Source: an uncultured Spirochaetota bacterium (lineage in GTDB: Bacteria > Spirochaetota > Spirochaetia > SZUA-6 > Fen-1364). Taken from it: a stretch of DNA of 64,000 nt. The notes below the pieces were generated by a model. That model was given only the letters and a program-made list of their open reading frames with translations, made no database searches and was not told the DNA's origin. Positions 38,965 through 63,680 of this stretch are shown here, piece after piece (position 1 is the stretch's first letter; each line of letters opens with the position of its first letter). The stretch is from positions 736,001-800,000 of the forward strand of contig CAWAHW010000002.1 of assembly GCA_963781885.1 (NCBI GenBank). Direction: 5' to 3'. A program made the translations under genes and the position numbers.

Positions 38965-39058
38965 CACGTTTTTCCGTCCGTGGGGTTACAGCCATCGTGA
39001 TGGCGCCCCTCACTCTTGACTCGCGTGGCGAAAATCGGGACTTTCTTCTGGAAAGCCA

Positions 39059-39856
39059 ATGATGCGTTTCCGTCTTTCTTTTCCCGCGGCTCTCGTGAGG
39101 CCCGACAGGACCTTTGCGAGCCGCGAGATCTACGCGATACCAAAAGTCATCCTCGTTCTCTCCCTCTTTGTCCTCTACATTGCCGGTGAGCGTCTCGTCC
39201 AGGGCTACTACCAGAACGAGCATGCAAAGACCCTGGCGCTCCTGGAGGTGGATTCCCGCATGGGCGGCTTTCTCCAGAACGCCCCCGCCCAGGTGCAGCG
39301 GCAGGCGCGCGACCAGATGCTGGACTCGATACTCGGCCGCCGCAGCGCGATGATGACGGCGTTCGGCATCGTTTCCGCCGGCGTGAGCTTTCTTCTCGTG
39401 CTCCTTGAGTCGTGGATCGTGAGCGCGGTGGCGTGCCAGTTCTTCGGCGGTCAGGAGGAGAAGACGGGCAGGGGACGCCCATCTGCCACGCTTTTCGTGG
39501 TGGCATGGTTTCCCCTGGCGCTGCGAAGGCTCCTGGCGGGCGTCATCATGGCGGCCCGCAGCCCCGATGCCGCCTCCAATGCGCTGACGCTTGCGGACTA
39601 TCGGAAGCTGAGCGCCGTCCGCTTCGACCTGTACTCCCTCCTCCATCTGCCGAACGTGGGGCCATTCCTCACGGCGGTGGCGACCATGGCGACCGATCCC
39701 TTTCTCCTCTGGACGCTCGCGATCCTCTGGTTCGGAGGCAGGGAGGTCTACCATATGCCGCTGCGGAGCGCGGTGATGCTCACCGCGGTTCTCGTCGTTC
39801 TCCTGGGGCTGCAGAGCGCGCTTCTGGGGCGCATCGGTGTTCAGTGGGAGCTGTAA
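39059..39856 (+). CDS. Yip1-family membrane protein
   Basis: 'LVRPDRTF' N-terminus, several TM helices and 'DPFLLW'; upstream of tolC/macAB-type genes. Confidence 0.7.
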   Translation: MMRFRLSFPAALVRPDRTFASREIYAIPKVILVLSLFVLYIAGERLVQGYYQNEHAKTLALLEVDSRMGGFLQNAPAQVQRQARDQMLDSILGRRSAMMTAFGIVSAGVSFLLVLLESWIVSAVACQFFGGQEEKTGRGRPSATLFVVAWFPLALRRLLAGVIMAARSPDAASNALTLADYRKLSAVRFDLYSLLHLPNVGPFLTAVATMATDPFLLWTLAILWFGGREVYHMPLRSAVMLTAVLVVLLGLQSALLGRIGVQWEL

Positions 39857-39978
39857 TGATGAAACCAGCGACTCTCAGTATGGTGACTGAATGATGCAGT
39901 TCTCATTTTGTCCCATGATAAATGACCGCTTTCTATGTGTGTCGTACACGTTCCAAACCCAAGAAGGCCCAAAATGAG

Positions 39979-40580
39979 ACAAGCCGCATCGAGCATGGTT
40001 GCAGGCTCTTGAGTTGGAGGATCCGCTGGAGCAGTTGACTCTCACCGAGTACCGCTGCCAAGTCGACGAGCTGGAGGAGAAGTGTCGGCGGATCAAGGCG
40101 GGCATCGAAGAGATCGCGGCACGTAAAAGCTATGCCGAACCTGTAGCCAAGCTGAAGGCGTTCAAGGGCGTGGAGACGCTGATCGCCTTGTCGCTTGTTT
40201 CGGAGATCGGGGACTTTCGGCGCTTTGCAGGTGCGGATCAATTCATGGCGTTTTTGGGGTTGGTGCCCTCCGAGCGATCCAGCGGAAACAAGAGGCGCTT
40301 GGGAGGAATCACAAAGGCGGGTAATTCCCACCTGCGCAAACTTCTGGTGGAGGCCGCCTGGCAATACCGCAGCTACCATCCCAGTAGCACTCGGTTGATG
40401 AAACGACGCGAGGGTCTTTCTCCATCCTTGGTCAGCTATGCCAACCGTGCGTGCAGGCGGCTAAACAAGAAATTTCTGCGTCTGCTTTTTCGCGGCAAAG
40501 CTTCTCAGACCGTGGTGACGGCGGTGGCGCGAGAGCTCTCGGGGTTCCTGTGGGGCGCGATGGTTGATCGGGTGGCTTGA
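39979..40580 (+). pseudogene. IS110 transposase, C-terminal half only
   Basis: EIGDFRRF, FLGLVPSERSSG, GGITKAGN, LVEAAW and AVAREL motifs; the N-terminal DEDD RuvC-like domain is absent. Confidence 0.9.
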
Positions 40581-40589
40581 GGAGGCTGC

Positions 40590-40770
40590 GTATGCAATCG
40601 AGGCAACCGGGACGGATGGGGAAGGTTCGTGGCGAACGGAGAATCCTCGAGCGGTTCTGCAGGCAGACTATGGTCTGATCCTGGTAATGAGACGGAGGCA
40701 AGCTCCTGACGATCACATTGGCCTGCGGTAACCAATCCACGCATATCAGACTGGTCGATCGTCGGTTATG
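40590..40770 (+). ncRNA. Predicted IS110 bridge RNA (boundaries approximate)
   Basis: Two stem/internal-loop modules whose loop segments match the insertion target and the IS right end. Confidence 0.7.
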
Positions 40771-40875
40771 CCCTTCTCCATCTCTTCGGGTTGGCCTCGA
40801 TGTTCAGAAGGAGTTCTAAAGAAAAAAGGAGGCTTTTAGAGCTTGACGGGGGCACATCATATCAGAACTGCTGTG

Positions 40876-42456
40876 ATGAAACGTGTCCTCTTGACGTGCA
40901 TCGCGGCGGCGCTTGCGCTGCCGGCCCTTTTTGCCGACGACGCGGCGACGCCGCAGACTCTTTCACTCGGCGATCTGCCTGCCCTGGTGCTCGGTCACGA
41001 CACGGGCGCCGCGATCTCGGCGCAGACCACGCAGTTCGCCCTCCACACCTACCGGGGAGCCATCGCGCAGGCCCTTCCCCAGATCGACTTCACCTCCAAC
41101 TATTCCCTCGCCTATACGCCCCTGTACGAGTCGGAATCGATCAGCCTCGGAGTCCCCCCGTACGGCTTCGGGATAGACGACACGAAGACGCAGGACCAGG
41201 GGAATCACTTCCTGGACACGAAGCTTTCCCTGTCGCAGCTCCTGCCCACGGCGGGCAACCTCTTCTTCAGCCTCGAAAACAGCATGACGATCAGCGCCGT
41301 CGGCAGCCAGACGGTGAACGGCATCGCCGTGACCACGGCCGACACGCAGTTCAGCGAGAAGCCGAAGGTGAGCCTCAACCTCACGCAGCCGCTTCTCCTC
41401 AATGGCAAGCTGATCGACTTCGACCTCTTTCCCGCAACGCTCCGCAAGGCGGAGCTGGGCTATCTCGAGCAGGACGCCGCGGACATGGCGCAGAGGAACC
41501 AGCTCGTGGGTCAGGCCGTGCAGAGCTATCTCGCGGTCATCCAGCTTCGCCGGAATGTCGCCCAGACGCAGAAGAGCATCGACGTGACGCAGGGCAATCT
41601 CGACGTGATGGAGAAGAACTACTCGCTGGGGCTCGTGGCGGAGCCTGACCTGCTGGACGCGCGCATCGGCCTTTCCCGTCAGAAGCAGGCGCTCCTGGAG
41701 CTCTCCTCCACGCTCGCGAAGACCGAGCGCCTGCTCGCACACGCAATCGGCAGGACCGACGTTGCAGCCGTCGTGTTCTCGGAGGACATCCCGCCGCTCG
41801 CCTTCGGCCTCGGCCGCGAGGAGGCAGTGGCGCGGGCCTTCAGCGGTCACCCGCTCCTCCGTCAGAAGGGGCTCACCGCGGAGGAAAGGCGCCTGGACAC
41901 GATACTCGCCGGGCAGCAGTATGCCTCCACGCTGTCCCTTTCATTCTCCTGGTCGCCCCGTTACCCCTTCACCACGAACACGCCGTACATGACGGACTTC
42001 AACTCGTCGTTCTCCGATCTGTTCAAGACGGGCGCGGGAAACGATTACTCCCTCGCCGCGGGTCTCACGATCCACCTCTATGATGGCGGCAGCCAGAGGG
42101 AGGGTCTCGCGGGCCAGGCGGCGCTCGGTGCGGCCGCGGACCAGGGTCTGGTTGCCCAGAGGCAGGAGGTGCAGGACCAGGTGGAGCTGGACCTCCTGGA
42201 AATGGCGAGTCTCCAGGAAAAGGTGGCGCTGCTGGAAGAATCGGCGCGGCTGGACGAGCGGCGGCTCTCGACGGAGCAGAGCCTGCTCGCGTTGGGCAAG
42301 TCAACCGAGCTTGCGGTGGAGTCGAAGGCTGCCGACGTCGATGCCGGGGCAAACGAGCTGTGGCGCGCGCGGGCGGATCTCTATCTCACGATTCTGGACC
42401 TGCATTCCCTCACGGGGGATGACGTGGCGAAGATCGTCCAAGGAAACGGGAAATGA
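40876..42456 (+). CDS. TolC family outer-membrane efflux protein
   Basis: Signal peptide, 'LNLTQPLL' and two OEP-like helical repeats; operon context. Confidence 0.85.
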   Translation: MKRVLLTCIAAALALPALFADDAATPQTLSLGDLPALVLGHDTGAAISAQTTQFALHTYRGAIAQALPQIDFTSNYSLAYTPLYESESISLGVPPYGFGIDDTKTQDQGNHFLDTKLSLSQLLPTAGNLFFSLENSMTISAVGSQTVNGIAVTTADTQFSEKPKVSLNLTQPLLLNGKLIDFDLFPATLRKAELGYLEQDAADMAQRNQLVGQAVQSYLAVIQLRRNVAQTQKSIDVTQGNLDVMEKNYSLGLVAEPDLLDARIGLSRQKQALLELSSTLAKTERLLAHAIGRTDVAAVVFSEDIPPLAFGLGREEAVARAFSGHPLLRQKGLTAEERRLDTILAGQQYASTLSLSFSWSPRYPFTTNTPYMTDFNSSFSDLFKTGAGNDYSLAAGLTIHLYDGGSQREGLAGQAALGAAADQGLVAQRQEVQDQVELDLLEMASLQEKVALLEESARLDERRLSTEQSLLALGKSTELAVESKAADVDAGANELWRARADLYLTILDLHSLTGDDVAKIVQGNGK

Positions 42457-63559: not shown

Positions 63560-63680
63560 AAGCAGTTCTCATTTTAGACCTTCCGGAGACCTGGAACAGG
63601 TATGCACACTTTGAAAACGGCCGTCCCTCATGGGACAAAATGAGAACTGCATCATTCAGTCACCATACTGAGAGTCGCCG
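63560..63680 (-). mobile_element. MITE copy 2 (121 bp, empty)
   Basis: 51 bp identical to copy 1, remainder similar; flanked by CGTCCACCA (63551-63559) and CGTCCACCC (63681-63689). Confidence 0.85.

Follow-up and report, generated by a model that had tools for sequence, protein, structure and literature searches.

A 64,000-nucleotide stretch of DNA from an uncultured Spirochaetota bacterium (contig CAWAHW010000002.1, positions 736,001 to 800,000; this whole stretch is referred to below as the window) carries a remnant of an insertion sequence (IS) of the IS1111 group, lodged in the right terminal repeat of a miniature inverted-repeat transposable element (MITE). Our analyses indicate that this IS very probably picks its insertion site with the help of a bridge/seek RNA whose gene lies downstream of that for the transposase, and that the copy in the window is a dead remnant of such an element. 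A sequence-only reading of the window had proposed an RNA-guided element programmed against a MITE inverted repeat, and this proposal is borne out by a constant insertion site, covariation of the RNA helices and covariation of the guides with the flanks of related elements. The guide, the occupied target and the empty target, which that reading had placed together in one window, were all found there, and each of its sequence statements could be read at the position it named.

A BLAST search of the window's own genome (7 contigs, 4.64 Mb) revealed 8 further copies of the element, giving 9 loci in total. These copies are 99.9-100% identical to window positions 39982-40873 and extend approximately 597 bases further on the left. 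With its 1484 bp, the full element comprises a 104-nt leader upstream of the transposase gene, an open reading frame (ORF) of 364 aa and, downstream of it, a 285-nt 3' non-coding region. No more than 2 differences in 1484 nt (positions 264 and 741) were seen among the seven full-length copies that can be read throughout; copy e (G000:C4, ~160000) matches up to IS nucleotide 1219, after which a long stretch of N hides the RNA region and the right junction.

All 9 genomic copies occupy the same site in the same orientation, AAAATGAG/IS/AACTGCTG, wherever the junction is readable (slashes within such sequences mark the point of insertion). The left junction AAAATGAG/ACAATATG (in a longer reading, AAAATGAG/ACAATATGAAGTGCCCCC...) was found in 8 of 8 copies of the full-length type, and the right junction CATATCAG/AACTGCTG (longer reading ...GGGGGCACATCATATCAG/AACTGCTG) in all 8 copies in which it could be read, among them that of the window. 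This site, AAAATG-AG/AACTGCT, lies 10 bp inside the right terminal repeat of the MITE, and is of the AATGAG/AACTGC type that the sequence-only reading had expected for full-length copies. An AG(A) core is present at both junctions and once in empty sites, and the insertion of the IS produced no further duplication. The splitting of the MITE repeat by an IS110 element is directly visible in the window, where the left junction flank AAAATGAG (39971-39978, plus strand) is followed by the remnant (39979-40865) and then by AACTGCTG (40866-40873, plus strand), i.e. the outer 8 bp of the right terminal repeat, which the IS has severed from the MITE.

The MITE itself is ~120 bp long, with terminal repeats CAGCAATTCTCAG... 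and ...AAAATGAGAACTGCTG and an internal inverted copy of the right repeat. A profile search (nhmmer) detected 14 copies in the genome, 9 of them occupied by the IS and 5 empty. Three of the five empty copies have an intact AAAATGAGAACTGC; of the other two, one has lost 1 nt from the site and the other is divergent. The unoccupied MITE copy 2 of the window (63561-63678, minus strand) holds the intact target that had been reported for it, at 63562-63575. MITE insertion is accompanied by 9-bp target duplications: matches of 8-9 bp flank copies a, b, d and h, the shared stretch is longer in copies c and f, and in copy g the match is only partial. Since the IS copies differ at no more than 2 nt, whereas pairwise identity among the occupied MITEs is only 66-94% (median 77%, 36 pairs), the insertions are recent and independent.

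The same comparison bears on another explanation, namely that the MITE and its IS form a composite unit moved by an IS4-like transposase, so that the 9 co-occurrences would represent one insertion event that was subsequently copied. In keeping with this, every IS copy resides inside a MITE, the MITE has its own 9-bp duplications, and the genome contains 3 copies of a matching autonomous IS (described below). However, the divergence between the occupied MITE parts contrasts with the near-identity of the IS parts, and both MITE sub-families include occupied members alongside near-identical empty ones (the MITE occ_f, for instance, shares 98% identity with the empty copy C1:386452). Moreover, insertion of the IS severs the outer 10 bp of the repeat that the transposase would need. 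We consider the copying of a composite unit extremely unlikely.

The target lies in one arm of an 18-19-bp palindrome of the MITE. Unoccupied copies of the AAAATGAGAACTGC 14-mer occur 16 times in the genome: 13 in the internal arm (where the next base is A in 12 cases and G in one) and 3 in the terminal arm (next base T). The terminal arm is occupied in 9 of 12 cases and the internal arm in 0 of 13 (Fisher p 1.1e-4); in MITE copy 1 of the window this never-occupied internal inverted copy is GCAGTTCTCATTTT (39896-39909, plus strand). Within reach of the guide described below, the two arms differ only at the base opposite the first guide nucleotide (A). The use of a single arm fits a guide of 9 nt, and DNA structure may contribute too. 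A site with perfect Watson-Crick complementarity, AATGAGAACCGC, does not occur in the genome.

The preference for one arm also raises the question of whether the transposase reads the MITE hairpin or repeat itself, as DNA structure or as sequence, the matches in the non-coding region being a relic or playing a minor role. The location of the target in a palindrome arm and the use of only one of two arms sharing the same 14-mer suit such a mode of recognition, and for the IS110 element ISPpu10 a target stem-loop is reported as a second specificity determinant (10.64898/2026.03.19.712850). The difference between the arms at the ninth guide position (T versus A or G) is nevertheless sufficient for an RNA-based explanation, and a pure protein read-out does not predict that the guides change with the flanks across at least 9 target sequences, as found among the relatives of the element (see below). 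Recognition by the protein without a substantial role of the RNA is, in our opinion, very unlikely.

The putative bridge/seek RNA has a 127-nt core (40638-40764, plus strand) composed of two modules, with helix P1 (GGAG/CUCC) formed by 40638-41 and 40703-06, a target module at 40645-40698 and a donor module at 40707-40764. In module 1, CCTC (40645-48) pairs with GAGG (40695-98), and the resulting helix P2 (CCUC/GAGG) closes the target loop around GCGGTTCT (40651-58), the hairpin CAGAC-TATG-GTCTG (40664-77; helices P3 and P4) and AATGAG (40686-91). In module 2, GACGATC (40708-14) pairs with GATCGTC (40757-63), and this helix P5 (GACGAUC/GAUCGUC) closes the donor loop, which contains ATTGGCCT (40717-24), the hairpin P6 and CATATCAG (40742-49). 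Two parallel modules with these stems had been recognised in the sequence-only reading, and their helices covary in the relatives of the element.

These relatives were identified by their transposases at 11 loci from genome contigs (41-67% identity; metagenome-assembled genomes of Spirochaetota, Pirellulales, Terriglobales, NC10 and Deferrisomatales) and at 72 loci from metagenomes, while viral contigs scanned with the transposase alignment yielded no relative. The 3' regions of the relatives align over a core of 127-131 nt. A covariance model (R1), built from 7 sequences and a hand-drawn structure, gave 55 matches when searched against 84 loci, and 49 distinct sequences were tested. In these, standard pairs are present in 94.2% of cells versus 84.9% in shuffles, and 13 of the 29 pairs in the six helices show a compensatory change. 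The covariation score of 0.221 (0.082 in shuffles) was reached in 0 of 500 shuffles. The alignment was fitted to the covariance model, which favours the structure, yet controls with the partners slid by 1-3 columns carry the same bias and score far lower (no more than 0.047). Within the RNA, conservation is highest in module 2. RNAalifold, run on a MAFFT alignment alone, recovered P1, P2, P5 and P6, paired the two donor-loop strands with each other, and missed P3 and P4 because MAFFT had misaligned two subgroups.

Some of the metagenome loci have a more complex organisation. Two copies of the RNA are found in single contigs (L030, at 7-137 and 2356-2486; also L037, at 418-542 on the minus strand), and in L020 (~1090-1102) the left end is preceded by GCATATCAG, which resembles the right end. 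These contigs may contain tandem or nested copies.

Two segments of module 1 match the two halves of the target. The 5' target guide AGCGGUUCU (40650-40658, plus strand) would pair with top-strand AGAACTGCT (core AG plus AACTGCT) through 8 Watson-Crick pairs and one G:T pair, and the 3' target guide AAUGAG (40686-40691, plus strand) with bottom-strand CTCATT (left half plus core). The sequence-only reading had put forward an 8-nt guide, GCGGTTCT, with a G:T wobble; the match and the wobble hold, and the length requires correction, the true guide being of 9 nt (AGCGGTTCT, 40650-58). Its assignment of AATGAG to the other target half agrees with the flanks of the relatives. When the 285-nt non-coding region was shuffled 20000 times, an ordered pair of target matches of this kind appeared 3 times.

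The correspondence between guides and flanks was examined at 44 loci with an identified RNA (40 non-redundant), 38 of which were usable for the 5' guide and 32 for the 3' guide. On average, 7.55 of the 9 positions of the 5' guide agree with the right flank in reverse complement, versus 5.46 +/- 0.21 after permutation (maximum 6.29 in 2000); 9 loci are perfect, 12 score 8/9, 11 score 7, and three each score 6 and 5. For the 3' guide and the left flank the mean is 5.22 of 7 (permuted 4.07 +/- 0.15, maximum 4.56). The guide segments follow the flanks across relatives with at least 9 different target sequences, examples of distinct guide/target pairs being AGGAAUUCU; AGCAAUUCU; AACUGAACU; AACUCAACU; CAAUAAGCU; and UAUCAACCU. 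These comparisons argue strongly for a target choice that would be guided by RNA through module 1. The bases AC and GC that follow the guides were considered as handshake guides and dropped, as they differ between subgroups, unlike the left end, which is constant. The subgroup with the most relatives (L006-L010, L023-L046 and other metagenome loci) resides in CATAACATAGAG/TTCAGTTGCC(C/G)CGC and variants of it, a target that looks like another repeated element or transposon end.

The donor side of the RNA is represented by two segments of module 2, ACAUUGGCCU and CAUAUCAG. The latter, proposed as the 3' donor guide (40742-40749, plus strand), equals the right end of the IS (40858-40865) at 8 of 8 positions, so the identity between the module 2 segment CATATCAG and the right end that had been noticed earlier stands. 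The 8-mer of the right end arose in 52 of 20000 shuffles, and its ATATCAG is kept in nearly all relatives read, including L058 and L061 (L024 has ATTTCAG and L060 ATGTCAG). The 5' strand of the donor loop, AUUGGCCU (40717-40724, plus strand), is the proposed left-donor guide, with imperfect pairing. The left end that the sequence-only reading had predicted, AG-GCCAAT, is absent: all full-length copies and close relatives start with AG-ACAATATGAAG (AG-ACAAT).

Several results weigh against the RNA-guided reading, on the donor side and in general. The segment ATTGGCCT matches the left end (reverse complement ATTG-TCT) only if a mismatch and a bulge of one base are allowed. In close relatives, module 2 and the two ends of the element are nearly invariant, which leaves covariation uninformative on donor pairing. 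In the distant subgroup formed by L058 and L061 (47% identity), the left end is ACGATATGG and the 3' donor segment, AAUAUCAG, is kept; the left end has changed without a compensating change, and the 5' loop strand contains no ATCG. The minimum-free-energy fold of the RNA is ordinary (z -0.32; 66 of 200 shuffles equally stable), and an Rfam scan of window positions 39000-42000 with E up to 1 gave 0 matches. Three of the 38 loci (L003/L016, L021 and L041) fit the right flank at only 5/9, as does L048 in a separate guide-flank reading; the right flank of L003 looks rearranged. A scan of window positions 39800-41000 for sigma-70-like promoters found 0 sites in the integrated copy. Alignment of 4 sequencing runs to the full element revealed no joint or circle junction in the public DNA contigs, and the 8 public sequencing runs listed with the element are all DNA contigs, none of them RNA.

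The pattern in L058 and L061 speaks weakly against the assignment of the 5' strand to the left donor. These two loci also have other sub-terminal repeats, ATATGGCGTGAC and GTCACGCCATAT, and both the 5' strand of their donor loop and its inner hairpin have been rebuilt. A search of the 3' non-coding region for a better left-donor guide returned two 7/8 matches, one being the ATTGGCCT segment itself and the other, located in a variable hairpin, being judged coincidental. One of the four guide assignments (5' donor) is unsupported, and the donor pairing is half supported.

It is conceivable that module 2 forms no donor loop at all, and that the protein recognises the ends of the element via their sub-terminal repeats, the RNA being purely target-seeking. 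The unclean match of the 5' donor segment to the left end and its lack of covariation in L058 and L061 speak for this view, as does the covariation of the sub-terminal repeats between the left and right ends; in addition, the seekRNAs co-purified with IS1111-type transposases, of 82-96 nt, are described by their target matches (PMC11187229). On the other hand, the full 8/8 identity of CAUAUCAG with the right end is rare in shuffled sequences and is preserved even in L058 and L061, and the donor module surpasses the rest of the RNA in conservation. Furthermore, a bridge RNA with donor-binding positions has been predicted in 93% of IS1111 elements, and in many IS1111 orthologues these positions sit in a multi-loop (PMC11208160). 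We regard a purely target-seeking RNA as unlikely, although it deserves more weight than the other alternatives considered above.

The assignment of the element to a group rests on its transposase and its ends. The full-length transposase (P0001) contains a DEDD (RuvC-like) domain (PF01548; 50.3 bits, cut-off 29) and a Transposase_20 domain (PF02371; 78.8 bits), and it matches the model NF033542, 'IS110 family RNA-guided transposase', with 237.3 bits (cut-off 140). The sequence GLVPSERSSG within P0001 fits the motif GL-P----S(T)G stated for IS1111-type transposases (PMC11187229). Sub-terminal inverted repeats are located 3-4 nt from the tips, ATATGAAGTGCCCCC on the left and GGGGGCACATCATAT on the right, and the two change together in L005, L011, L047, L058 and L061. 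With its RNA downstream of the transposase gene and its sub-terminal repeats, the element belongs to the IS1111 group of the IS110 family and is not of the IS621 type. Plasmid-borne relatives are less than 60% identical to P0001, the best (46.5%) being an IS110-family gene of Leptospira.

Taking into account the published mechanism of this family, the element would excise as a circle in which the right end is joined to the left end, and a promoter would form across the joint, with its -35 hexamer TTGACG provided by the right end. In the complex of transposase and RNA, the target would then be bound by pairing to module 1 and the joined ends by pairing to module 2; strand exchange would take place at the AG/CT core. 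A ninth guide base (A with T) would account for the restriction of insertions to the terminal arm of the MITE palindrome. The conserved -35-like hexamer TTGACG (40843-40848, plus strand) points out of the right end and is presumably one half of the circle-junction promoter; CTTGAC is kept inside the right end in 9 of 10 aligned relatives, and TTGAC in 10 of 10. From inspection by eye, we infer that TTGACG and GACAAT (core plus left end, with a spacing of 16 nt) together may constitute this promoter.

The copy residing in the window (39979-40865, plus strand) is a 5'-deleted form of the 1484-bp element, 100% identical to nucleotides 601-1484 of the full-length copies. It retains ACA of the left end and then resumes at IS nucleotide ~601, nucleotides ~4-600, which contain the left end and the DEDD domain, having been deleted. 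The remnant of the transposase gene (39982-40580, plus strand) encodes the C-terminal Transposase_20 domain only, PF02371 being the sole match of the remaining ORF (39999-40580). The right sub-terminal repeat is present (40848-40862, plus strand), its left partner having been lost with the deletion, and its RNA region does not differ from the one in the full copies. This copy is dead: it has lost its mobility and an active transposase, and its RNA gene is still intact. The deletion joint ...GAGACA/AGCCGC... (window positions 39979-39983) shows at most 1 nt of microhomology and lies off the AG core, and no mechanism was found for it. Recombination at AG cores was rejected as the cause, since the product retains ACA between two AGs.

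MITE copy 1, which harbours the remnant, occupies 39866-39978 (plus strand); it opens with the left terminal repeat, CAGCGACTCTCAG..., and ends at the split in the right repeat, of which it includes the left half, ...CCCAAAATGAG. It is flanked by two copies of the 9-bp target-site duplication TGATGAAAC (39857-39865 and 40874-40882, both on the plus strand), the right one including the ATG (40875) of an efflux gene. A gene encoding a Yip1-domain protein is located on one side and this outer-membrane efflux gene (ORF 40843-42456, matching PF02321) on the other. The MITE was inserted exactly between the stop codon TAA of the Yip1-domain gene (39854-56) and the ATG of the efflux gene, and these formerly adjacent genes are now ~1 kb apart.

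The origin of the MITE can be traced through one of the relatives. Beside the IS110-type relative of L005 there is an ORF fragment of 195 aa, without any Pfam or NCBIfam match, which matches three loci of the window's genome with 47% identity (tblastn, to a 437-aa transposase). These loci are identical copies of a 1656-bp IS flanked by 9-bp duplications, with a left repeat CAGCAATTCTAACTATGGG and a right repeat, read inward, CAGCAATTCGCATTATGGCC; they are located at L086 (G000:C4:220865-222520), C6 ~77.4-79.2 kb and C1 ~277.9-279.7 kb. The 437-aa transposase remains below the threshold for both DDE_Tnp_1 (20 bits, cut-off 23) and DDE_Tnp_1_assoc (20 bits, cut-off 32), and the IS may at best be called IS4/ISAs1-like. 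Its terminal repeats, CAGCAATTCT..., are like those of the MITE, of which it is the likely parent. The MITE accordingly displays the features of its class: it is short and non-coding, has terminal repeats and duplications, is present in 14 copies, and has a related autonomous IS. All three copies of the 1656-bp IS are free of the IS1111-type element, and the C1 copy abuts the MITE carrying IS copy f. The right repeat of this IS has CG where occupied repeats elsewhere have the CT core (compare the L019 flank CT/CATTATGGCC), and the guide present in the window's genome fits the right repeat of the MITE and not the repeats of the parent.

A similar association is observed elsewhere. In L003/L016, L005, L017, L019 and L055, this same IS4-like transposase gene lies just upstream of the IS110-type relative, and the left flanks there continue the same terminal repeat (CT/AATTATGG, CT/AATTTTGG, CT/CATTATGG and CT/AAATGTAG). 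The records of L003 and L005 indicate that this clade inserts after nucleotide 10 of the terminal repeat of this IS4-like family in at least two phyla. We tentatively suggest, as a possibility that is still rather doubtful, that one clade of the IS1111 group is a dedicated cross-phylum hyperparasite of one IS4-like family, whose terminal repeat it always cuts after nucleotide 10 (CAGCAATTCT/), its guides drifting after the variants of the repeat. If so, the guide may have been retuned from the parental type AGCAAUUCU (as in L005 and L020) to AGCGGUUCU, which fits the right repeat of the MITE, and the arms of one palindrome may be told apart by a single distal guide base. With a right-repeat core of CG instead of CT and a left repeat that mismatches the 3' guide, the resident autonomous IS may have escaped.

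Two further loci deserve mention. At L088 (G000:C4:720262-720274) a solitary unoccupied AATGAGAACTGCT is situated just upstream of a single-copy gene encoding a DDE_Tnp_1_4 transposase (452 bits), and 14 nt of this locus, AGCAGTTCTCATTT, are common to the right repeat of the MITE. In L005 (1-1119 and 1733-2320), a reverse transcriptase gene (RVT_1, 120 bits) is present immediately past the 195-aa IS4-like fragment, beside the IS110-type relative.

The reports of RNA-guided targeting in the IS110 and IS1111 groups date from 2024 (PMC11208160, PMC11187229), and insertion of IS1111-group elements into MITEs and transposon repeats had been described earlier; the present case involves no new mechanism. 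Its value lies in the fact that a single genome displays the guide together with nine occupied sites, three intact empty ones and thirteen unused, near-identical decoys, while ~40 relatives reveal the change of guide with target. This constitutes a natural gauge of guide length and mismatch tolerance for elements of the IS1111 type, in which one G:T pair is tolerated and a mismatch at the distal ninth position apparently is not. It also provides an example of one family of mobile elements persistently disabling the ends of another, and thus a natural data set on transposon-on-transposon parasitism. Literature searches on MITE and terminal-repeat targeting, outside ISfinder and the supplements of the papers, yielded no report of this IS4-like family as a target; PMC11187229 and PMC11208160, with their target logos and tables of bridge RNAs, might already include close relatives of the element.

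Several known elements share individual features with the one described here. IS4321 and IS5075, of the IS1111 group, insert at a fixed position and in a fixed orientation into the terminal repeats of Tn21-family transposons. They resemble our element in that an IS1111-group member enters the terminal repeat of another transposon family, and differ from it in their Tn3/Tn21 hosts, the host here being an IS4-like IS and its MITE. In Coxiella burnetii RSA 493, 20 of the 21 copies of IS1111 reside in QMITE2, with MITE parts on either side (PMC5896051). There, as in the genome studied here, copies of an IS1111-group element are concentrated at one position of a MITE palindrome, a likeness of group and site. 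The Coxiella element targets a GTAG REP inside QMITE2, whereas the target here is a terminal repeat, entered 10 bp from its tip, with an IS4-like parent in the same genome. The QMITE2 study predates the RNA-guide model, and the parts of it consulted show no guide.

Further parallels are found among elements whose RNAs have been described. Like the seekRNA elements ISEc11, ISPa11, ISKpn4 and ISPst6 (Siddiquee et al. 2024; PMC11187229), our element has its RNA downstream of the transposase gene, sub-terminal repeats and the GL-P----SG motif, and the match to the top strand precedes (5') that to the bottom strand in the folded RNA, as in IS1111-type seekRNAs. It differs from them in its targets and in the length of its transposase (364 aa versus 330-350 aa for the IS1111 family; PMC11187229). 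In IS621 (Durrant et al. 2024; PDB 8WT6) the RNA is encoded in the left end and the order of the guides is reversed, and protein similarity to our element does not extend beyond the C-terminal domain (E 1e-7, residues 222-289). Nevertheless, the bridge RNA of IS621 likewise has two loops, with a 9-nt guide (7 plus 2 core) and a short second guide, and there, too, target and donor have a CT/AG core in common (PMC11208160).

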